Below, piece by piece: positions 17,600 through 43,950 of a stretch of DNA of 64,000 bases (the stretch's first letter is position 1; every line of letters begins with the position of its first letter). The stretch is from Burkholderiales bacterium (GTDB lineage: Bacteria; Pseudomonadota; Gammaproteobacteria; Burkholderiales; CAIKXV01): NCBI GenBank assembly GCA_038205245.1, contig JBBRCD010000005.1, positions 7,659-71,658 of the forward strand, given 5' to 3'. The translations under genes and the position numbers were made by a program. The notes below the pieces were generated by a model. The model worked only from the letters and a program-made list of their open reading frames with translations, had not been told where the DNA came from and did no database searches.

Positions 17600-18559
17600 C
17601 TAGCCTATCGGCAGGTCGATCCCCAGGCCGCGTTCCCGGGCGAGTTCGAGCACCCGGCGCCCGGTGTACAGATCCTGCAGCGCCATGCCGTGCGACTCGT
17701 AGAGCGTGATCTGATCGGCGGCAGTGCGGCCCGGATGGCGGCCGACGATGACGTCCCCCAGGGTCGGGATGTTCTCCCAGTAGATGATGCCGGCTTCCAC
17801 GCCGGCCAGAAGATCGCCGCATTCGCCCATCGCCACCTCCACCGAGTCGACCGTGATCAGGTCGCAGCGCCTGACCGTGGTCAGGTCGATCTCGCGCCGG
17901 TTGAGCGCGTTCGCGCCGGTGGCGGCGATGAACTGTCCGGGCTCGAGCAACGCGCCATCGAACAGGGGCTCTTCTGAGCGGGTCATGGTCACGATGATGT
18001 CCGATCCGCGCACCGTTTCTTCGCGCGAGCTGGCCGGGCGCACCAGGGTGTTCACCTTCGGGGCCATCTCGTCGCAGAAACGGCGGACCCGTTCGGCGTT
18101 GCGGCCGAACACCTTCACTTCAGTGATCCTGCGCACTGCGCACACCGCTTCGAGCTGGGTTACCGCGTGCCGCCCGGAGCCGAACAGGCCCACCACCGCG
18201 GCGTCCTCGCGCGCCAGGTACTTGGCGGCCACCCCGGTGGCTGCGCCGGTGCGCATCTGGCCCATCCAGTCGCCTTCGAGCATCGCCTCCAGATTGCCCT
18301 GGGCATGATCGATCAGGTGGACCAGGAACGTGCGCGAGCGGTCCGGGCGCAGGTAGTAGGCCTTGAAGCCGATGGTGTTGATCTCCGGTGCGGCACCTTG
18401 CAGGATGTGCAGGTGCCCGCCGGGCTGCCGGGTGCGCCGGCGCGGGATGTCGAAGGCGCGGCCGTGGGCGCGATCGACGAACGCCTGTTCGACCCGGTCG
18501 ATGGCGATCGGCATGGTCAGGACCGCACGGATATCGGCTTCGCTCAGGTATCGGACCAT
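17600..18559 (-). CDS. ornithine cyclodeaminase/mu-crystallin family protein
   Basis: 319 aa. N-terminal YLSEADIRAVLTM, Rossmann GLFGSGRHA, family length. Confidence 0.85.
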   Translation of the reverse strand: MVRYLSEADIRAVLTMPIAIDRVEQAFVDRAHGRAFDIPRRRTRQPGGHLHILQGAAPEINTIGFKAYYLRPDRSRTFLVHLIDHAQGNLEAMLEGDWMGQMRTGAATGVAAKYLAREDAAVVGLFGSGRHAVTQLEAVCAVRRITEVKVFGRNAERVRRFCDEMAPKVNTLVRPASSREETVRGSDIIVTMTRSEEPLFDGALLEPGQFIAATGANALNRREIDLTTVRRCDLITVDSVEVAMGECGDLLAGVEAGIIYWENIPTLGDVIVGRHPGRTAADQITLYESHGMALQDLYTGRRVLELARERGLGIDLPIG

Positions 18560-18687
18560 GGTGTCGTCTTTCTCGCAACTGGGGCAGGGCGGAGGGGGAG
18601 CGCTGGCGGCCCCGGTAAGGTACCACCGCTGTTTGCACTACACTCACGGTCGCCTTGGCGGGCACCCAGGACCCGCCGCCGTACCTT

Positions 18688-18823
18688 CTGTCCCCGGTTC
18701 CTGTTCCCTCCCCTGTCCCCTGTTCCTGTTCCCTCCCCTGTCCCCTGTCCCCTGTCCCCAGTCCCCAGTCCCCAGTCCCCAGTCCCCAGTCCCCAGTCCC
18801 CAGTCCCCAGTCCCCAGTCCTCG
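18688..18823. repeat. compound C-rich microsatellite: 25-mer x2, GTCCCCT x3, GTCCCCA x9
   Basis: Read directly. GTTCCTGTTCCCTCCCCTGTCCCCT occurs at 18697-18721 and 18722-18746. Nine perfect GTCCCCA units span 18754-18816. The array ends 1 nt before the ATG at 18825. Confidence 0.95.
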
Positions 18824-18824
18824 G

Positions 18825-20015
18825 ATGCCCATGACCGACAACCGCCGTGGTCCGCTCGCCGATGTGCGTGTGCTCGAGTTCGGGCAGATTGCCGCTGGCC
18901 CGTTCTGCGGCATGCTGCTCGCCGATCTGGGCGCCGACGTGGTCAAGGTGGAAAAGCCGGACGGTGGCGATGACATGCGGCGCTGGCCGCCGTTGACCGA
19001 GGGGCCCGACCCGGCAGCCGGGCGATTCTCGGAGAACTTCGCTTCGGTCAATCGCAACAAGCGCAGCATCGCGGTCGACCTGAAGGACGAGCGCGCGGTC
19101 GCGCGCCTGCGTCAACTCGCCAATGTCGCCGACGTGATCGTGGAGAATTTCCGCCCCGGAGTGCTTGACCGGCTCGGGCTGGGCTTCGCCGCGCTGCGTG
19201 AAACCAATCCCCGGCTGGTCTACACCTCGGTCACCGGCTATGGCCAGACCGGCCCCTACGCCGCTCGCGGTGCCTTCGATGTGACCGTGCAGGCGGTGAG
19301 CGGGCTGATGAGTGTCACTGGCGAACCGGGGCGCGAGGCGGTCAAGGCCGGGGTGCCGGTCGGCGACTTCGTCGCCGGTCTGTACTCGGCCTACACCACG
19401 CTGGCCGCAGTGATGACCGCCCGCAGCACCGGGTTGGGTGCGCATGTCGACTGCTCGATGCTGGGTGGCCTGCTCGGGATCGCGCAGTTGCAGACCAGCG
19501 AGTTCTTCGGCACTGGACAGGTACCCTCGGCGCTTGGCTCGGCGCATCCGCGCAATGCGCCGTATCGCGGCTTTCGTGCCTCGGATGCGCCGTTCGTGAT
19601 CGCTGCCGGCAACGACAAGCTGTGGCACTCGGTGTGCGACGCGGTCGGCCTCGAAACACTGAAGACCGATCCCAGGTTCGTGACCCAGGAGATGCGCGCG
19701 CGCAACCAGGGCGAACTGTTCGACCTGCTGCAGCCGGTGTTCGAGACCCAGCCAGCGGCCCACTGGTTCGCGCAGTTCGACCGGCGCGGCGTGCCCTGGG
19801 CACCGATCAACGACTACGCAGCGATCCTGGCCGACCCGCAGGTGGCCCACCTCGGACTGGTGCATTCGATGGATCTGCCCAATGGCCGGACCACCCACAC
19901 GGTCGGTTTTCCGGTGCAGATGTCCGGTTTCGACTTCCGCATCTACCGCCGGCCACCGAAACTGGGCGAGCACAATGACGAGGTGGAGCAGGCATGGCTG
20001 GGGAGCGCGCGGTGA
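18825..20015 (+). CDS. CaiB/BaiF-family (class III) CoA-transferase
   Basis: About 396 aa from MPMTDNRRGPLADVRVLEFGQIAAGPFCGMLLADLGADVVKVE, the canonical family N-terminus. No Shine-Dalgarno visible upstream. Confidence 0.85.
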   Translation: MPMTDNRRGPLADVRVLEFGQIAAGPFCGMLLADLGADVVKVEKPDGGDDMRRWPPLTEGPDPAAGRFSENFASVNRNKRSIAVDLKDERAVARLRQLANVADVIVENFRPGVLDRLGLGFAALRETNPRLVYTSVTGYGQTGPYAARGAFDVTVQAVSGLMSVTGEPGREAVKAGVPVGDFVAGLYSAYTTLAAVMTARSTGLGAHVDCSMLGGLLGIAQLQTSEFFGTGQVPSALGSAHPRNAPYRGFRASDAPFVIAAGNDKLWHSVCDAVGLETLKTDPRFVTQEMRARNQGELFDLLQPVFETQPAAHWFAQFDRRGVPWAPINDYAAILADPQVAHLGLVHSMDLPNGRTTHTVGFPVQMSGFDFRIYRRPPKLGEHNDEVEQAWLGSAR

Positions 20016-20129
20016 ACGGCGCTGCGCTGAGTCGCAGGGTTCGACTCCCGCCAGGCGCGGGCGACTCAAGCTACCGTTGGTTTGGACCGATAGTGAACCC
20101 ATGGCCGAATTCCTGATGAGAGGTTTCCC

Positions 20130-20888: not shown

Positions 20889-20904
20889 TCAGTCCCTGCG
20901 GTCC

Positions 20905-21006
20905 ATTCTGGGGGCGCGTCCCCGCGGTTGACCCCGGGGAGGATTCCCGCAGCCCGCCCCGGGGGCGGAACCCCGCAGTAGACCCCGGGGGCGGATCCCC
21001 GTCGTC
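20905..21006. repeat. four tandem 25-26-bp GC-rich palindromic units (consensus GACCCCGGGGGCGGATCCCCGCAGT)
   Basis: Units at 20905-29, 20930-54, 20955-80 and 20981-21006. Each contains a GGGG...CCCC hairpin. Begins 17 nt after the dsbC stop. Confidence 0.85.
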
Positions 21007-21109
21007 GACACCGGCGTCAGTGCGCAGCCCGATCGGTTAAACTCGAACCAGAAGTCGCGAGACACGAGCGCGCATTGATTGTTTCGATGCCAGGGAGGCA
21101 TCGAACCGT

Positions 21110-28209: not shown

Positions 28210-28899
28210 TCACTTCTTCTTCGGACGGAAGGCCTTGACCACCGTCTCGTGGGTTTCGACATAGGGCCCGCCGATCAGATCGATGCAGTAGGGCACGGCG
28301 GCGAAGATGCCTGGCACGATCGGCGTGCCATCGGCATCCTTCAGGCCTTCGAGCGTCTCGCGGATCGACTTGGGTTGGCCGGGCAGGTTGATGATCAGGG
28401 CTTTGCCGCGAATCACTGCCACCTGGCGCGACAGGATCGCGGTGGGCACGAAGCGCAGGCTGATCTGCCGCATCTGCTCACCGAAGCCGGGCATCTCCTT
28501 GTCGCCGACAGCGAGCGTGGCCTCGGGTGTGACATCGCGCAGCGCCGGGCCGGTGCCGCCGGTGGTCAGCACCAGATCGCAGTGCTCGCAGTCGACCAGT
28601 TCGATCAGCGCCGCCTCGATCAACGGGCGCTCGTCCGGGATCAAGCGGGTGACCGTGGTCCAGGGCGACGCCAGTGCGCGGCCGAACCACTCGTCGAGCG
28701 CCGGGATGCCCAGATCTTCGTAGACGCCGCGCGAGGCGCGGTCGCTGATCGAGACCAGCCCTATGGTAAGCGTTGCACCGAGAGACGCGGGGCTGGCGGC
28801 CGGGATGGACGTCGGGTCGGACGTCGGGTCGGACGTCCGGTCAGACGTCCGGTCGGACACCGGCGCGGCGGCAGGGGAATCTGAAGTGGGCTCGGACAT
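28210..28899 (-). CDS. mog: molybdopterin adenylyltransferase Mog with N-terminal repeat extension
   Basis: 229 aa. The core IGLVSISDRASRGVYEDLGIPAL...LVLTTGGTGPALRDVTPEA is typical Mog. The only canonical start lies upstream of the repeat-encoded SDRTSDRTSDPTSDPT. Confidence 0.85.
   Translation of the reverse strand: MSEPTSDSPAAAPVSDRTSDRTSDPTSDPTSIPAASPASLGATLTIGLVSISDRASRGVYEDLGIPALDEWFGRALASPWTTVTRLIPDERPLIEAALIELVDCEHCDLVLTTGGTGPALRDVTPEATLAVGDKEMPGFGEQMRQISLRFVPTAILSRQVAVIRGKALIINLPGQPKSIRETLEGLKDADGTPIVPGIFAAVPYCIDLIGGPYVETHETVVKAFRPKKK
28807..28854. repeat. 12-nt in-frame tandem repeat x4 (GGACGTCGGGTC-type)
   Basis: Read directly. Encodes (SDRT)2(SDPT)2 on the minus strand within the mog 5-prime end. 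Confidence 0.9.
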
Positions 28900-30128: not shown

Positions 30129-30671
30129 CTACGTCTGACCATCACTCAGCGGGACTTCGCCATCGATCAGGCGCAGTACGCGAAACAGCTCCCGGTAGCT
30201 TTTCGGCGGCTTGTTCTGCGCCGCCTCGCGCTTTGCGTTGCGCACCAGGGAACGCAGTTGCTGGGTATCACAGCCCGGATGCTGCGCGGCGAACTCGGTC
30301 AGCCCGGTTTCGCTGTCCAACAGGCGGGTGCGCCAGCGCTCGAGCGCATGCTGGCGCGCGACCTCGGCGGCCGAGGTGCCGTCCCAGATCGACAACTGGG
30401 CCTGGATCGGCGCCGGATCGATCTCGCGCATCAGCTTGCCGATGTACTGCATCTGGCGCCGTCTTGCCTCATGCCGGGTGATCGATTGTGCATCCAGGAC
30501 CGCGTCCAAAAGCGGTTCCGGCAGCTCGATCACCTTGAGCTTGTCGCGCGGCAGGTCGACCAGCCGCGCGCCAAGCGCCTGCAGGTCATGGGCGGCCTGC
30601 TTGAGCCGGGTCTTGCTGAGGGCCACCTGAGCGGGGTCGGCTGCGGTCGTCTGGTCGATCGGGTCGGTCAT
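30129..30671 (-). CDS. yjgA: ribosome-associated protein YjgA (DUF615)
   Basis: 180 aa. The KTRLKQAAHDLQALG...EARRRQMQYIGKLMR pattern is typical of YjgA. Divergent from pmbA, as in E. coli. Confidence 0.85.
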   Translation of the reverse strand: MTDPIDQTTAADPAQVALSKTRLKQAAHDLQALGARLVDLPRDKLKVIELPEPLLDAVLDAQSITRHEARRRQMQYIGKLMREIDPAPIQAQLSIWDGTSAAEVARQHALERWRTRLLDSETGLTEFAAQHPGCDTQQLRSLVRNAKREAAQNKPPKSYRELFRVLRLIDGEVPLSDGQT

Positions 30672-30679
30672 TGGCAGGG

Positions 30680-30745
30680 GCGGGAGACTCGGCAGAGACT
30701 GGGCAGAGACGGGGCAGAAACGGCGCAGAGACGTGGCAGCTACGC
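30680..30745. repeat. 11-nt tandem repeat, about 6 units (GGCAGAGACNG)
   Basis: The GCAGAGAC core recurs at 30692, 30703, 30714, 30725 and 30736 (exact 11-nt phase). Starts 9 nt from the yjgA start codon. Confidence 0.85.
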
Positions 30746-30834
30746 AGGAATACGGCGGACACCGACAGGGGTGGGGCAGGAGGGGACACCCGCGCTGTTA
30801 TCATAAGTCCTGTCTCGACTGTGAGTACGATCCG

Positions 30835-32175
30835 ATGAGCACTGCCCGATTCAGCCTGTCCGAAGACACCTTGAAGCAGATCGCTGCCGATGCTCTGGCG
30901 CATGCGAAATCGCTTGGCGCAACCGCGGCCGATGCCGAGGTGAATGACGGCTTCGGCCAGAGTGTGACGGTGCGTTCGCGCGAAGTCGAAACCATCGAGT
31001 ACACCCGCGACAAGTCGCTCGGGGTATCGATCTATCTTGGCCAGCAGCGCGGCCACGCCAGCACCTCGGACTTCACCCGAAAGGCGATCCTTGACACGGT
31101 CGAGGCGGCGTTGTCGATTGCCCGCTTCACTGCCGCTGACGATTGCGCCGGGCTGCCCGATCCCTCCCGGCACCCGGTGTCGTTGCCTGCGCTGGACCTG
31201 CATCACCCGTGGGACGTGACCGTCGATGATGCGATCGAACTCGCCAGACGCTGCGAGGCGGCGGCGCTCGATGTGGATGCGCGCATCACCAACTCCGAGG
31301 GTGCCAACCTGTATACCCAGCAGTGGCACTTCGCACTGGCCAACTCGAACGGATTCGTCGGAAGCTATCCGACCTCGCGTTACAGCCTGTCCTGCTCGGT
31401 GATCGGCGGGCAGGGCGATGACATGCAGCGCGACGACTGGTATTCCGCTGCCCGCAGGCAGGATGAGCTGGATGCTCCCGAGTCTGTCGGCCGGCGCGCT
31501 GCCGAGCGCACCCTTCAGCGGCTGGACGCGCGCAAGCTCGATACGCTGCAGGCACCGGTACTGTTTGACGCCACGCTTGCCGGCAGCCTGATCTCGCATT
31601 TCATCGGCGCGGTGTCCGGCGGCGCGCTGTACCGCAAGTCGAGCTACCTGCTCGACAGTCTGGGCGAGCAGGTGTTCGCCTCCGGTATCCACCTGACCGA
31701 AGACCCGCACCTGCTGCGCGGGCTGGGCAGTTCCCCGTTCGATGCCGAGGGGGTGGCTACCAGCGCGCGCGAGGTGGTGCGCGATGGCGTGGTGCAGGGC
31801 TACTTCCTGGGCAGCTATTCGGCTCGCAAGCTCGGCATGCAGAGCACTGGCAACGCCGGGGGCAGCCACCACCTGGCATTGGCCAGCGGCACACTCGACT
31901 TCGCGGGTCTGCTGAAGAAGATGGGACGCGGACTGGTGGTGACCGAACTGCTCGGCCACGGCATCAACTCGGTGACCGGCGACTATTCACGCGGCGCAGC
32001 CGGCTTCTGGGTCGAAGATGGCGTGATCGCCTATCCGGTGCACGAGATCACCATCGCCGGCAACCTGAAGGCGATGTTCCGCGGCATCGTCGAGGTGGGC
32101 GCCGATGTGCTCGACCGCGGGTCCAGGAGCACGGGCTCGATCCTGATCGACAACATGACCATTGCCGGAAACTGA
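30835..32175 (+). CDS. pmbA: metalloprotease PmbA (TldE)
   Basis: 446 aa from MSTARFSLSEDTLKQI. Typical PmbA blocks and the C-terminal GSILIDNMTIAG. Confidence 0.9.
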   Translation: MSTARFSLSEDTLKQIAADALAHAKSLGATAADAEVNDGFGQSVTVRSREVETIEYTRDKSLGVSIYLGQQRGHASTSDFTRKAILDTVEAALSIARFTAADDCAGLPDPSRHPVSLPALDLHHPWDVTVDDAIELARRCEAAALDVDARITNSEGANLYTQQWHFALANSNGFVGSYPTSRYSLSCSVIGGQGDDMQRDDWYSAARRQDELDAPESVGRRAAERTLQRLDARKLDTLQAPVLFDATLAGSLISHFIGAVSGGALYRKSSYLLDSLGEQVFASGIHLTEDPHLLRGLGSSPFDAEGVATSAREVVRDGVVQGYFLGSYSARKLGMQSTGNAGGSHHLALASGTLDFAGLLKKMGRGLVVTELLGHGINSVTGDYSRGAAGFWVEDGVIAYPVHEITIAGNLKAMFRGIVEVGADVLDRGSRSTGSILIDNMTIAGN

Positions 32176-36788: not shown

Positions 36789-38330
36789 GTGTCATCGACC
36801 CTGTTGTGGATTGCACTCTATCTACCCGAACTGCCTCTGGAGGCGGTCAATCGTGCCCAGTCGGGCAGTGGGGGGCTGGGTGGGATTTCGAGTGACCGTG
36901 CCAGCGGCGCGCTGATCCTCGACCTGCCGCTGGCGGTGAGCGACGGCCCGGGCAACAGGCCGTTCGTGCTGGCCGTCAATGCACCGGCACATGCCGCCGG
37001 CGTTTGTGTCGGCATGAGCGTCGCGGCGGCCAATGCGCTTGTCACCGGACTGGTCGTGCTGCCGCGCGCTGCCGAGCGCGAGCAGCAGGCGATCGCGCAG
37101 GTCGCGGCCTGGGCTGCACAGTTCACCCCATCGGTGGTGCTCGAGCGCGCCGGGGTGCTGCTCGAAGTCTCGGCCAGTCTCAAACTGTTCGGTGGTCTCG
37201 CGCGGCTGCTCGGACAGTTGCGCACCGGTCTCACCGAACTGGGCTTTCGCGCTGCCTTCGGTGTGGCGCCGACACCGCGTGCGGCCTGGCTGCTCGCGCG
37301 TGCCGGGCACCGGCAGACCGGCGTACGTGCCTGCCTCGAGCCGGGCGATCTGGCCGCGCGTCTCGCCGGGTTGCCGCTCGAACTGCTCGACTGGCCGCGC
37401 GAGACCCTCGATGCGCTGGCGGTGCTGGGTATCAGCCGTATAGGCGAGGCGACTGCGCTGCCACGCGAGGGCTTCCGGCGCCGCTTCGGTGCGCCAGCAT
37501 CGATCGATCTGGATCGTGCCCTGGGCCGTGCCGCCGATCCGCGGGTGTGCTTCGCGTTGCCCGAGCGCTTCGATGCGCGTATCGATCTGCTGAGCGAGGT
37601 CAACGACACCGCGCTGCTCGATGTGCCGCTCACGCGCATGCTCGCGGCAATGGAAGGTTTTCTGCGCGCGCGCGGGGCCGGTGCGCTGCAGGTCGAAGTC
37701 GAGCTCGAGCATGGCCGTTCGATGCCACCGACGCTGCTTGCGGTCGGCGCGCATGCGCCCGAGCGTGCCCGTGTCCGCTGGCGCCGGCTGCTGCGCGAGC
37801 GGCTTGACCGGCTCGAACTCAAGGCTACGGTGAGCGCGGTGTCGATCAAGGTGGCGACATTGCATGGCTTCGGCGAACAGAGCACCAGCTTCCTGCCCGA
37901 TGCGACGCGGCGTGCGCAGTCCTGGCGCGAACTCACCGAGCGGCTCGCCTCCCGGCTCGAGCCCGGCGCGATGTTCACCGTGGCGCTGCGCGATGACCAT
38001 CGCCCGGAGCAGGCCTGGTATCGCGCCGATGCCCGGCTGCCGCCACCCGCGGCGCGCCAGCTGCATGAATCGCCAGCCGGCGCACTCGGTGCACGGCCGG
38101 TGTTCCTGCTCGAGCGGCCGCGCGCGCTCATCTGTGCCGAAGCCCGCCCGCAGTATCAGGGTGCACTGGAGATGATCAGCGGGCCGGAGCGGATCGAAGC
38201 CGGCTGGTGGGATGGCCGGGCCGCGGCGCGTGACTACTTCGTCGCGCGCAACCGTTGTGGCGAGGTGTGCTGGATCTATCGTGAGCCGGTCGATCCGTCG
38301 CGCTGGTATCTGCATGGCGTGTTCGGCTAG
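36789..38330 (+). CDS. imuB: Y-family polymerase-like protein ImuB
   Basis: 513 aa. N-terminal LWIALYLPELPLEAV is typical of ImuB. Sits between imuA and dnaE2. Confidence 0.85.
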   Translation: MSSTLLWIALYLPELPLEAVNRAQSGSGGLGGISSDRASGALILDLPLAVSDGPGNRPFVLAVNAPAHAAGVCVGMSVAAANALVTGLVVLPRAAEREQQAIAQVAAWAAQFTPSVVLERAGVLLEVSASLKLFGGLARLLGQLRTGLTELGFRAAFGVAPTPRAAWLLARAGHRQTGVRACLEPGDLAARLAGLPLELLDWPRETLDALAVLGISRIGEATALPREGFRRRFGAPASIDLDRALGRAADPRVCFALPERFDARIDLLSEVNDTALLDVPLTRMLAAMEGFLRARGAGALQVEVELEHGRSMPPTLLAVGAHAPERARVRWRRLLRERLDRLELKATVSAVSIKVATLHGFGEQSTSFLPDATRRAQSWRELTERLASRLEPGAMFTVALRDDHRPEQAWYRADARLPPPAARQLHESPAGALGARPVFLLERPRALICAEARPQYQGALEMISGPERIEAGWWDGRAAARDYFVARNRCGEVCWIYREPVDPSRWYLHGVFG

Positions 38331-38371
38331 CAGTTCAGCGCACACGCCCAACGAACGCCAGTCGCCGCAGC

Positions 38372-41300
38372 ATGTTGCCGGGCTATGCCGAACTCGACGC
38401 ACTGTCGAACTTCAGTTTCCTGCGCGCGGCCTCGCATCCGGAGGAACTGGTCGCGCAGGCCTCGGCCCTGGGCTATCGCGCGCTGGCGATCGTCGACGAG
38501 TGTTCGGTGTCCGGTGTGGTGCGCGCCCATCTGGCGGCGAAGGACTGCGCGCTGGCGCTGATCGTCGGTGCGCAGTTCAGGCTGGCCGACTGCACGGCGA
38601 TAGAACGGGTGATCCTGCTTGCCTGCACACGCGAGGGCTATGGCAATCTGTGCGAGCTGATCAGCCTGGCACGCGGTCGCGCGCCCAAGGGCAACTACCG
38701 GCTGCAGCTCGCCGATCTGCTGCGGGGGCTTGATCAGTGTCTGGCGATCGTGCTGCTGGCTGCCCCGGAGACGGTGGCGGCCGAGACCGAGACCGAGACC
38801 GCCGACTCACCCGCGGGACCTGCCGTGCACGATGCGCTCGGGCTGCTCGCCCGCGCTTTCCCCGGCGACTGCTGGCTCGGCGTCGCGCTGGTGCAAAGTG
38901 CGGACGATGGCGCGCGGCTTGCGCACGCGCTGCAACTGGCGGCCGAACTGCAGCTGCCGTTGACTGCCTGCGGTGCAGTGCAGATGCACCGGCGAGAACG
39001 CAAGCCGCTGCATGATGTGCTGACCGCCATCCGCGCGCTGACACCGCTCACCGAGCTCGGCCGCCGGGTGCTGCCCAATGCCGAACGCTGCCTGCGCCCG
39101 ATCGGCCGGCTGATGCAGCTCTATCCGCCCGAGCTGCTGGCGCAGACGATGGCGATCGCCGAACGCTGCACCTTCTCGCTCGATGAGTTGCGCTACGAGT
39201 ATCCGCGCGAGCTGGTGCCGCAGGGGCGCAGCGCGAGCGCCTGGCTGCGCGAGCTGACCTTCGACGGACTCGCGCTGCGCTATCCGCACGGCGCATCCGA
39301 TGCGGTGCTGAAGTTGATCGAGCATGAGCTCGCGCTCATTGCCGAGCTGAAGTACGAGGCCTACTTCCTCACCGTGCATGACATCGTGCGTTTCGCGCGC
39401 GGCCGCGGCATCCTGTGCCAGGGGCGCGGCTCGGCGGCGAACTCGGCGGTCTGCTATGCACTGGGTATCACCGAGGTCGACCCGGGACGCATGCAGGTGC
39501 TGTTCGAGCGCTTCATCTCCAAGGAGCGCAACGAGCCGCCCGATATCGATGTCGACTTCGAGCATCAGCGGCGCGAAGAGGTGATGCAGTACCTGTACGC
39601 GAAGTACGGGCGCGATCGCGCCGCGCTGACTGCAGCGCTGTCCACTTACCGGCCACGCTCGGCGCTGCGTGATGTGGGCAAGGCGTTCGGCTTGTCGCTC
39701 GACCAGATCGACCGATTGACGAAGACGCTCGCCTGGTGGGATGGACGCGAGGTGGCGCGCGAGCGGCTGGTCGAGGCTGGCTTCGACCCGGACAATCCGC
39801 TGCTCGTGCAGGTGGTCGAGTTCGCGCATCTGCTGGTCGGCTTTCCCCGCCATCTGTCGCAGCACAGCGGCGGCTTCGTCATTGCGCGCGACCGGCTGAC
39901 CCGGCTGGTGCCGGTTGAGAACGCGGCGATGGACGGGCGCACGGTGATCCAGTGGGACAAGGACGATCTGGATGCGCTCGGCCTGCTCAAGATCGATGTG
40001 CTGGCGCTGGGCATGCTCACTGCGGTGAGAAAGACGCTCGATGCCCTGAATGCATTCGGGGTACCGTCACCGGAGGGCGGGGCGAGGCACGTTTCGGGTA
40101 CAGACCCCGTATCGGATCCCGCATCACATCCTGCATCACATCCTGCATCACATCCTGTAACGTCCGCAGCCTGGCGTCTGCAGGACATCCCGGCCGAGGA
40201 TGCCGCCACCTACGCGATGATCCAGCGCGCCGACACCATCGGCGTGTTTCAGATCGAGTCGCGTGCACAGATGTCGATGCTGCCGCGGCTGAAGCCGGCC
40301 TGCTTCTACGATCTGGTGATCGAGGTGGCGATCGTGCGCCCCGGGCCGATCCAGGGCGGCATGGTGCATCCGTACCTGCGCCGGCGGCAGGGCCGGGAGC
40401 CGGTCACCTATCCATCGGCGGCGGTGAAGGGCGTGCTCGAGCGCACGCTGGGCATCTCGATCTTCCAGGAGCAGGTGATGCAACTGGTGGTGGTGGCCGC
40501 CGGCTTCACCGCCGGTGAGGCCGACCGGGTGCGCCGGGCGATGGCCGCCTGGCGGCGCAAGGGGGGGCTTGAGCCGTTTCGCGACAAGCTGCTCGCCGGA
40601 ATGCTGGCGCGCGGCTACAGCGCGAGCTATGCCGAGCAGATATTCCAGCAGATTCTCGGCTTCGGCGAGTATGGTTTTCCCGAGTCGCATGCGGCGAGCT
40701 TTGCGCTGCTGGTGTATGTGTCGTGCTGGCTGAAGTGCCATCACCCGGCAGCCTTCGCCTGCGGGCTGCTCAACTCGCAGCCGCTGGGCTTCTATGCGCC
40801 CTCGCAGATCGTGCAGGATGTGAAACGGCATGGCGTGCAGGTGCATGCGCCCGATGTGCTGGTGAGCGGATGGGATTGCGTGCTGGAGGCGGCGGTCGAT
40901 GCGCAGGCGAGATCAGGTGCACTGTCGGCTGCGGCGCCGGAAGTAACACCGGTAGCACTGGTAACACCGGTAGCACCGGAACCGACATCGGCGCCGGGCA
41001 CGCTGCCTGGGGTGGCACCTCACCTGGTGCCGGGTCCGGCATTGAGACTCGGCCTGCGCATGATCAAGGGATTGAGCGAGGCCGGGGCTGCGCGGCTGGT
41101 GGCCGCGCGCGCGCAGTCACCGTTCAGCGATGTCGCCGATCTCGCGCGCCGCGCACAGTTGCAGCGCACCGACATCAACGCGCTGGCCGCGGCCGATGCA
41201 CTCGTCTCGCTCGCCGGGCATCGGCGCGAGGCGTGGTGGCAGGCGCTGGGTTTCGATGGCGATACGGCATTGACACGGTCGCCGCGCGATGCCGTGCAGC

Positions 41301-41737
41301 CGTCGCTGTTCGAACCGCGCGAAGGCGAGCAGGTGGTGCTCGACTACGCCACGCTCGGGCTCACGCTGCGCAGTCATCCGCTCGCGCTGTTGCGCCCGTT
41401 GCTGACTGCGCGCCGCATGTCCACTGCCGAGGCGCTGCGCAGTTCGCGCAACGGGCAGACGATGCGCGTGTGCGGCATCGTCACCTGCCGCCAGCGTCCG
41501 TCCACCGCCAGCGGGGTGGTGTTCGTCACCCTGGAGGACGAGACCGGCTACATCAATGTCGTGGTCTGGCCGGCGCTGGTCGAGCGTCAACGCCGCGAAC
41601 TGCTCGCCTCACGGCTGATGACCGTCTACGGCCAGGTGCAGCGCGAAGGTGAAGTCATCCATCTGGTGGCGGGCCGGCTGGTCGATGACAGTCGGCTGCT
41701 CGGGCGGCTCACTACCCAGTCGCGCGACTTCAGCTAA
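38372..41737 (+). CDS. dnaE2: error-prone DNA polymerase DnaE2 (ImuC)
   Basis: 1121 aa. PHP N-terminus YAELDALSNFSFLRAASHPEEL and Pol III alpha core blocks (GRGSAANSAVCYALGIT, DIDVDFEH, HSGGFVI). Confidence 0.95.
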   Translation: MLPGYAELDALSNFSFLRAASHPEELVAQASALGYRALAIVDECSVSGVVRAHLAAKDCALALIVGAQFRLADCTAIERVILLACTREGYGNLCELISLARGRAPKGNYRLQLADLLRGLDQCLAIVLLAAPETVAAETETETADSPAGPAVHDALGLLARAFPGDCWLGVALVQSADDGARLAHALQLAAELQLPLTACGAVQMHRRERKPLHDVLTAIRALTPLTELGRRVLPNAERCLRPIGRLMQLYPPELLAQTMAIAERCTFSLDELRYEYPRELVPQGRSASAWLRELTFDGLALRYPHGASDAVLKLIEHELALIAELKYEAYFLTVHDIVRFARGRGILCQGRGSAANSAVCYALGITEVDPGRMQVLFERFISKERNEPPDIDVDFEHQRREEVMQYLYAKYGRDRAALTAALSTYRPRSALRDVGKAFGLSLDQIDRLTKTLAWWDGREVARERLVEAGFDPDNPLLVQVVEFAHLLVGFPRHLSQHSGGFVIARDRLTRLVPVENAAMDGRTVIQWDKDDLDALGLLKIDVLALGMLTAVRKTLDALNAFGVPSPEGGARHVSGTDPVSDPASHPASHPASHPVTSAAWRLQDIPAEDAATYAMIQRADTIGVFQIESRAQMSMLPRLKPACFYDLVIEVAIVRPGPIQGGMVHPYLRRRQGREPVTYPSAAVKGVLERTLGISIFQEQVMQLVVVAAGFTAGEADRVRRAMAAWRRKGGLEPFRDKLLAGMLARGYSASYAEQIFQQILGFGEYGFPESHAASFALLVYVSCWLKCHHPAAFACGLLNSQPLGFYAPSQIVQDVKRHGVQVHAPDVLVSGWDCVLEAAVDAQARSGALSAAAPEVTPVALVTPVAPEPTSAPGTLPGVAPHLVPGPALRLGLRMIKGLSEAGAARLVAARAQSPFSDVADLARRAQLQRTDINALAAADALVSLAGHRREAWWQALGFDGDTALTRSPRDAVQPSLFEPREGEQVVLDYATLGLTLRSHPLALLRPLLTARRMSTAEALRSSRNGQTMRVCGIVTCRQRPSTASGVVFVTLEDETGYINVVVWPALVERQRRELLASRLMTVYGQVQREGEVIHLVAGRLVDDSRLLGRLTTQSRDFS
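40109..40156. repeat. 12-nt in-frame tandem repeat (GCATCACATCCT x3 plus a degenerate unit)
   Basis: Encodes VSDP ASHP ASHP ASHP within dnaE2. Further in-frame repeats: GAGACC x3 at 38783-38800, and about 40940-40980. Confidence 0.9.
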
Positions 41738-43807: not shown

Positions 43808-43890
43808 GGCCGATGATAGCGCCAACCCTGGCCGGCACGGCGCCTGCAGCGGCAATGCCACGCGTGGACACGGCTCGTGCCGGTCGGCAA

Positions 43891-43950
43891 CACGTGGGTC
43901 AGCACCACGTGGGTCAGCACCACGTGGGTCAGCACCAACTCGGTCAGCAC
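43891..43950. repeat. 15-nt tandem repeat CACGTGGGTCAGCAC x3 plus one degenerate unit
   Basis: Three perfect units at 43891, 43906 and 43921, each containing the palindrome CACGTG. Fourth unit is CAACTCGGTCAGCAC. Confidence 0.95.

Follow-up and report, generated by a model that had tools for sequence, protein, structure and literature searches.

A variable GGGGACT/CCCCAGT heptamer array in the predicted leader of a betaproteobacterial CoA-transferase gene

The cyanobacterial repeat STRR1, reportedly described by Mazel et al. in 1990, is said to have CCCCAGT as its unit. G-rich heptameric repeats that form quadruplexes have been described as GGGGA(C/T)T in Nostoc sp. PCC 7120 and as GGGAATC in Xanthomonas (Rehm et al. 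2015, PMC4692102). The oligonucleotides (GGGGACT)4 and (GGGGACT)3GGGG adopt K+-dependent antiparallel quadruplexes with a T1/2 above 95 °C, as determined by circular dichroism and melting, and (CCCCAGT)n forms i-motifs at acidic pH (PMC4692102). A heptamer of another kind, (ATCTTTC)n of Haemophilus influenzae hmw1A and hmw2A, is transcribed within the 5′ untranslated region (UTR), where expression is inversely proportional to repeat number (PMC12721329); the mechanism requires a long 5′-UTR hairpin with a G-rich arm, which is cleaved by RNase III (PMC12721329). Here, we describe a heptamer array found in a 64,000-nucleotide stretch of contig JBBRCD010000005.1 (the window), where it lies immediately upstream of a gene for a CoA-transferase. 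The array belongs to the known class of G-rich heptameric quadruplex-forming repeats and is not a new kind of element. What is new is an instance of the GGGGACT/CCCCAGT class in this betaproteobacterium, the class and its in vitro behaviour having already been published. The array varies in length among nearly identical strains and is absent from orthologous loci, and on balance we regard it as a leader microsatellite, grown by slippage, whose length would dampen expression of the CoA-transferase gene.

The array comprises ~17 units over about 134-136 bp (18690-18823) and ends 1 nt 5′ of the start codon, ATG 18825, of a family III (CaiB/BaiF-type) CoA-transferase gene (18825-20015, plus strand; Pfam PF02515, E = 2e-123). 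The 265-bp intergenic region that contains it (18560-18824) separates this gene from a divergent gene of the ornithine cyclodeaminase (OCD)/mu-crystallin family (17600-18559, minus strand; Pfam PF02423, E = 3e-53). With respect to the CoA-transferase gene, the coding strand has the unit as CCCCAGT and the template strand as GGGGACT. By sequence reading and Tandem Repeats Finder (TRF), a degenerate 5′ part was delimited at 18690-18753 of the plus strand, consisting of a GTCCCCG unit (18690-18696), two perfect copies of the 25-mer GTTCCTGTTCCCTCCCCTGTCCCCT (18697-18721 and 18722-18746) and a GTCCCCT unit (18747-18753), each placed by sequence reading. Nine perfect GTCCCCA units follow (18754-18816, plus strand; register CCCCAGT, minus strand GGGGACT), as counted by TRF and with a probe, and form the pure, slippage-prone core of the array. 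A terminal degenerate unit, GTCCTCG with an additional G (18817-18824, plus strand), abuts the start codon and was found, on comparing alleles, in all complete ones. Because the 25-mers consist of decayed heptamers (GTTCCT, GTTCCCT, CCCCT and GTCCCCT), the whole 134 bp can be read as a single heptamer array, degenerate towards its 5′ end and pure in its 3′ core. A preliminary description of the locus had the layout, the 265-bp gap, the 25-mers, the nine GTCCCCA units and the distance to the ATG correct to the base.

Within the window, the array stands out both as a repeat and as a quadruplex motif. TRF assigned it a period of 7, with 12.4 copies, 98% matches and a score of 153, the highest in the window. 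A two-unit probe, the 14-mer GTCCCCAGTCCCCA, gave nine matches with at most one mismatch, versus 0.02 expected from shuffles, and the heptamer is the sole unit of 5-11 nt with at least four perfect tandem copies in the window and ~1 Mb of other fetched bacterial loci. Since Rfam and tRNA scans of the window returned no match, the array region is not explained by a known RNA element. On the plus strand, the array carries 17 C-tracts with at least three C each, among which 15 are CCCC. Of the CCCC tracts, 12 follow one another at intervals of 3 nt (18735-18815), which gives the minus strand 12 GGGG tracts separated by 3-nt loops. This canonical motif of 85 nt is the longest in the 64 kb, whose two strands together have only four canonical quadruplex motifs. 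G4Hunter scored the minus strand at 1.84 over the array and at 2.0 over 18725-18822. For the CoA-transferase gene, the template strand is the G-rich one, whose 12-17 G-tracts could, judging by their number, accommodate up to four tandem quadruplexes. The propensity for G-quadruplexes that had been ascribed to the array is thus borne out by G4Hunter and by the published in vitro folding of the identical GGGGACT oligonucleotide (PMC4692102).

Exact-protein look-ups yielded six independent contigs whose flanks match the window at 97.6-99.7% identity, and degenerate heptamers are present in 6/6. Five of these contigs, each from a different sample (L081, L089, L090, L091 and L094; left flanks 99.2-99.7% identical to the window), share a short allele that is 86 bp shorter than that of the window. 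It reads GTCCCCG GTTCCT GTTCCCA (GTCCACA)2 GTCCCCA GTCCTCGG ATG, with a degenerate 5′ part reduced to GTCCCCG GTTCCT GTTCCCA. In the sixth contig, L093, a single GTCCACA precedes three or more GTCCCCA units, and the contig ends inside the array. Counting the window, the short allele and L093, at least three alleles occur on a background of ~99% identity; repeat number, which the preliminary description had proposed to compare among related strains, is thus not fixed. The alleles differ by duplication of the 25-mer, by unit number and by unit substitutions, and not by a single slip. When 8.3 kb were compared with L089, indels of more than 1 bp fell only in the heptamer array and in a second tandem array, built of 26-nt hairpin units, 3′ of a dsbC-like gene. 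Judged from these contigs, the array is a hypervariable heptanucleotide microsatellite.

The L093 contig (JGI 3300007517; array at its positions 1-21) stops exactly within the heptamers, past three GTCCCCA units. Its end inside the array indicates that the heptamer locus breaks short-read assemblies, and the array of that sample may be a long or a heterogeneous one. The second tandem array lies at 20903-21014, between the dsbC-like gene and a gene for an MFS transporter, and its units of ~26 nt each include a small GC hairpin (GGGGGCGGAnCCCCG...). Copy number at this array also varies among strains of 99% identity, with one unit more in L089 (6036-6332) and about two fewer in L081 (3712-3930). 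The array could be REP-like (repetitive extragenic palindrome-like) or terminator-like.

Syntenic orthologues whose CoA-transferase is 83-86% identical have no heptamer repeats in their intergenic regions, which measure 60 bp in L082-L087, 151 bp in L088 and 200 bp in L175. Given that nearly identical strains vary and that the orthologues are free of repeats, the array appears to be young, lineage-specific and unstable rather than a conserved element. The TAnnnT box closest to the CoA-transferase ATG on the plus strand reads TA(A/C)ACT in 3/3 independent array-less orthologues and lies 7-8 nt upstream, arranged as CACTAAACT-N7-ATG in L082 (TAAACT) and as GCTACACT-N8-ATG in L088 and L175 (TACACT). 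The CoA-transferase upstream regions of L082, L088 and L175 show no trace of a Shine-Dalgarno sequence. Spacing of 7-8 nt between the -10 box and the ATG is typical of leaderless mRNAs, and the array-less orthologues indeed look leaderless. Because more distant CoA-transferase homologues (57-72% identical) do not have the leaderless layout, several having ordinary Shine-Dalgarno sequences, this interpretation is confined to the three closest array-less orthologues.

The window retains GCACTACACT, but with the box 180 nt 5′ of the ATG (94 nt in the short allele). Its hexamer, TACACT, is a -10-like box at 18639-18644 of the plus strand, conserved in the orthologues as TA(A/C)ACT, and the putative promoter of the CoA-transferase gene. 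A TACACT promoter would imply a leader of ~173 nt that holds the whole array, or of ~87 nt in the short allele. As the conserved box now lies 180 nt (94 nt) upstream, the array most likely resides in the transcribed leader and not in a promoter spacer. For the OCD gene, the candidate is an extended -10-like box, TGgTACCTT (18617-18625, minus strand), 57 nt before the OCD ATG; the window, L082 and L088 all have a box of the form TGgTAnnnT between 21 and 90 nt upstream of that ATG. Since this box lies to the left of the array, the array would be upstream of the OCD core promoter and distal to it, and the OCD gene is probably little affected. The best-supported arrangement of these putative elements is therefore one of two back-to-back core promoters at ~18617-18644, with the array downstream, in the predicted CoA-transferase leader. 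Within the array, we found no TAnnnT box, and no promoter hexamers flank it at spacer distance.

This anatomy bears on two earlier remarks. The array had been thought to fill the promoter and to set element spacing and helical phase, a role that does not suit a 136-bp array without an internal TAnnnT, downstream of the CoA-transferase box and distal to the OCD box. The absence of a Shine-Dalgarno sequence from the CoA-transferase gene had also been recorded, correctly, as no GGAGG-like sequence precedes either ATG 18825 or a second in-frame ATG at 18831, two codons further on; array-less orthologues also lack the sequence, and its absence is ancestral and no consequence of the array. Within the presumed OCD 5′ UTR, a G-rich plus-strand segment at 18582-18600 (GGGCAGGGCGGAGGGGGAG) is preceded by one inverted ACTGGGG unit. 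Segment and array units make up a weak inverted repeat of 15 nt, 73% complementary, in which the G-rich strand is opposite to that of the array.

The composition of the predicted leader bears on its likely fate as RNA. Over ~173 nt, it is 52% C and 18% G (54% C and 15% G for the array alone), and the C-G skew at the array, 47% (z 6.1), is the strongest in the window. RNA spanning 18570-18860 folds worse than dinucleotide shuffles, with a z of +2.37. Calculated by the 78-nt bubble method, the C>G bubble of the long allele extends over 221 positions with an area of 6345 %×bp, and that of the short allele over 135 positions with an area of 2345; the chain of YC (pyrimidine-cytosine) dimers with 9-13-nt linkers runs to 14 in the long allele versus 7 in the short one. 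Among E. coli and Salmonella templates, every one with a C>G bubble above 78 bp or an area above 700 underwent Rho-dependent termination in vitro (Nadiras et al., PMC6144790). Because its bubble exceeds these thresholds, the predicted leader could plausibly serve for Rho loading, the more so in the long allele. Its composition is that of a rut site, with a bubble of at least ~78 nt, spaced YC dimers and unstructured RNA, and the leader is presumably untranslated. A 5′-UTR hairpin of the hmw type was also considered and was rejected, the RNA being less structured than shuffles and the best inverted repeat being one of 15 nt at 73%.

We consider it somewhat probable that these features together reflect a slippage-grown leader microsatellite with length-dependent dampening of CoA-transferase expression. 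The array would have grown by slipped-strand mispairing and unequal duplication between the -10 box and the start codon, converting an ancestral leaderless junction of 7-8 nt into a long leader that is C-rich, G-poor, unstructured and devoid of a Shine-Dalgarno sequence. Such growth could lower expression in three ways. The start codon would be shifted away from the 5′ end of the transcript, behind a leader without a Shine-Dalgarno sequence, and initiation would weaken; the long, untranslated, C-rich RNA would offer Rho a near-ideal loading site and promote premature termination; and up to four tandem quadruplexes on the template strand could stall RNA polymerase. The three effects would be additive, so that a longer array would mean a lower output of CoA-transferase. 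The position of the promoter, transcription of the array and every one of these effects on expression are what we infer from sequence comparison. CoA-transferase differences between strains are mostly synonymous, with pN/pS (the ratio of nonsynonymous to synonymous polymorphism) at 0.10-0.17, calculated from only 6-13 differences; with that small number, the gene appears to be under purifying selection in carriers of both alleles and still functional. Because of this selection, even a long leader cannot abolish expression, and its effect would be one of dampening, not silencing.

Several observations weigh against a dampening leader. The promoter was assigned from a single hexamer conserved in three orthologues, and a consensus promoter and terminator scan of 18300-19100 found no match and no sigma-70-type promoter. 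The Rho thresholds are enterobacterial and may not hold in a betaproteobacterium of 67% GC. The exact count of nine core units depends on one assembly, since the source appears to be a contig of a metagenome-assembled genome. The short allele is the same in five samples from two sample-accession sets, and since it is identical in all five the locus is not visibly unstable on that timescale. Purifying selection acts on the CoA-transferase with the long and the short allele alike. Lastly, no regulatory role was found for hundreds of G-rich heptamer repeats (Rehm et al., PMC4692102).

The chief competitor is a neutral microsatellite, a by-product of slippage that is tolerated in the spacer and whose length has no measurable effect on the flanking genes. 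We judge this less probable. In its favour, orthologues with a CoA-transferase of 83-86% identity do not have the array, an unrelated tandem array 2 kb away varies in the same strains, which suggests a general instability of tandem repeats, and the CoA-transferase is conserved in carriers of both alleles. It also agrees with the published survey of the repeat class, in which no function was found and neighbouring genes were functionally random (Rehm et al., PMC4692102). What it leaves unaccounted for is position and composition. The array abuts the start codon and separates the ATG from the only conserved promoter-like box, no other part of the 64 kb has so extreme a C>G skew or so long a quadruplex motif, and an insertion of 136 nt at such a place would be expected to alter expression in most tested bacterial systems.

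Length-dependent dampening might also be given an adaptive turn. The array could act as a naturally evolving rheostat that sets the expression of a metabolic gene in a bacterium that is free-living and not a pathogen, a tunable C-rich leader setting the probability of Rho termination and quadruplex stalling and so giving populations reversible, heritable expression variants of a CoA-transferase pathway. We regard this extension as doubtful, and the notion of an adaptive switch, in which variability itself is selected, is unproven. More improbable still is a classical contingency locus, in which reversible, high-frequency gain and loss of 7 bp would toggle one or both divergent promoters through element spacing or helical phase and variability would be under selection. 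The occurrence of at least three alleles among nearly identical strains would suit it, as would the perfect nine-unit core, which is what a recently active slippage tract should look like, and the contig break of L093 within the array fits heterogeneity within a sample. However, the array does not lie between a -35 and a -10 element, contains no TAnnnT box and is far too long for a promoter spacer. Its alleles, moreover, differ by complex events (duplication of the 25-mer, substitutions of units) and not by one-unit steps, the short allele is fixed in five samples, and the flanking genes are metabolic, with no part in surface structures, restriction-modification or host interaction.

Misassembly of short reads in a metagenome could in principle have produced the expanded array or its copy number: the window apparently comes from a metagenome-assembled genome, a perfect period-7 tract of 63 bp can loop in de Bruijn graphs with k ≤63, and L093 breaks within the array. 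We think this very unlikely, because the internal order of the array is non-trivial (two exact 25-mers come first, a T-type unit next and A-type units last) and unique sequence flanks it on either side, the independent L093 assembly also has at least three consecutive GTCCCCA units, unlike the short allele, and degenerate heptamers occur in all six related contigs. Least credible, and rejected on the evidence of frame and orthologues, is a coding repeat that would start at ATG 18558, GTG 18561 or TTG 18633 and encode a Pro/Ser-rich N-terminal extension (SPVPSPQ repeats) whose frame 7-nt slips would shift, for although an open frame runs from 18363 across the array and on into the CoA-transferase, with 18558, 18561 and 18633 in frame, orthologue N-termini align at ATG 18825/18831, the 86-bp difference of the short allele breaks the frame while that allele is common and the gene under purifying selection, and the upstream starts, which are without a Shine-Dalgarno sequence, either overlap the start codon of the OCD gene or lie 5′ of the conserved -10-like box.

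The window as a whole is chromosomal, with ~67% GC, and carries recA, glyA, ribBA, thiL, an imuB-dnaE2 cassette and genes for several TctC-type receptors. The closest named relatives of its RecA and CoA-transferase belong to metagenome-assembled genomes of Burkholderiales or Rhodocyclaceae, and from these affinities the host is taken to be an uncultured betaproteobacterium. A scan of a species-level genome collection with the CoA-transferase found no close genome, the best match being 64% identical, and a metagenome scan with the same protein gave, among the matches listed, distant homologues only (≤72% identical). The cassette, at 36789-41737, consists of an imuB-like (IMS family) gene followed by a gene for a DnaE2-type error-prone polymerase III alpha subunit and corresponds to an SOS mutagenesis cassette. 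Around the CoA-transferase gene, the lineage of the window differs from the array-less orthologues on both sides. In all of the latter, an enoyl-CoA hydratase gene overlaps the end of the CoA-transferase gene (5170-5898 in L082, 5182-5928 in L088 and 4209-4937 in L175), and it is missing from the window lineage, where the corresponding segment is 20016-20129. On the other side of the locus, the orthologues have a patatin gene and the window lineage an alpha/beta hydrolase gene. The pathway context of the CoA-transferase is thus altered in the same lineage that acquired the array.

Further tandem repeats were seen elsewhere in the window. About five tandem 11-nt units (GGCAGAGACNG) occupy 30684-30739, in the short gap between the divergent darP (30129-30671, minus strand) and pmbA/tldD-like (30733-32175, plus strand) genes, and constitute another repeat in a divergent promoter region. 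An in-frame 15-nt repeat of 4.6 copies (43882-43950) falls in the N-terminal part of the longest open reading frame (ORF) for a DctP-type solute-binding protein, and an in-frame 12-nt repeat of 4.3 copies (28801-28858) in that of the longest ORF for a MoCF_biosynth protein. The two repeats precede the points at which the Pfam domains begin, so that they may belong to signal or linker regions or may come ahead of the actual start codons.

The interest of the heptamer locus depends on which explanation is correct. Whatever the outcome, the functionally unexplained GGGGACT/CCCCAGT class gains a case with natural short, intermediate and long alleles on a background of ~99% identity, the contrast on which a clean test depends. 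If copy number tunes expression, repeat-based heritable variation would extend from the surface genes of pathogens to the metabolism of environmental bacteria, and the locus would provide a compact natural system in which the template quadruplex, Rho loading and the loss of leaderless initiation could be separated. If the array acts as a rheostat, the identity of its unit with the cyanobacterial GGGGACT/CCCCAGT would hint at a heptamer that is intrinsically favoured for expansion across phyla. If length has no effect, the array is one more polymorphic microsatellite, of use, if at all, for telling strains apart and as a known source of breaks in assemblies.

The genome of Nostoc measures ~6.4 Mb. 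With 89 repeat loci (PMC4692102), its density is ~1 per 72 kb, too sparse for a single window to judge dispersal; our 64-kb window has one heptamer array and its syntenic relatives none. In other respects, the array resembles the Nostoc and Xanthomonas class closely. Its unit, GGGGACT/CCCCAGT, is identical to that of Nostoc, its tandem heptamers are accompanied by imperfect flanking units, and its length varies among close relatives. It is intergenic, less than 50 bp upstream of an ORF and with its G-rich strand non-coding, which is the geometry preferred in PMC4692102, and quadruplex and i-motif formation has been published for exactly these oligonucleotides in vitro, on DNA other than that of this locus. 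It differs in its host, a Burkholderiales/Rhodocyclaceae-like betaproteobacterium of 67% GC and neither a cyanobacterium nor a Xanthomonas, in its location between divergent genes, a position under-represented in PMC4692102, and in its ~17 units, where the class prefers four (PMC4692102). G-rich heptamer repeats are abundant in Xanthomonas at 65% GC (PMC4692102), and a GC-rich environmental genome is accordingly no surprising place for such an array, contrary to the preliminary description.

The remaining systems offer analogies. Like the heptamers of hmw1A and hmw2A, the array places a 7-nt unit between a promoter, putative in this case, and the start codon; the unit is transcribed in hmw and would be so here, and its repeat number varies naturally; a fall of expression with repeat number is known for hmw and proposed for the CoA-transferase gene. 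In contrast, the AT-rich unit of hmw is not prone to quadruplexes, the products of the hmw genes are adhesins of a pathogen rather than a metabolic enzyme of an environmental bacterium, and since the RNase III hairpin is absent here hmw1A is an analogy and not a case of membership. With Rho-attenuated leaders (PMC6144790, PMC5314796), the predicted leader shares its length, its C-rich, G-poor and poorly structured RNA and a suitable YC spacing, but the known leaders are conserved and coupled to sensors, whereas this one is a recent, non-conserved microsatellite for which a role of Rho is predicted. Classical phase-variable loci of Neisseria, Haemophilus and Campylobacter likewise have a slippage-prone repeat beside a gene start and copy numbers that differ in close strains; unlike them, the present array lies neither in an ORF nor in a -35/-10 spacer, and it adjoins metabolic genes rather than genes for surface structures, host interaction or restriction-modification.

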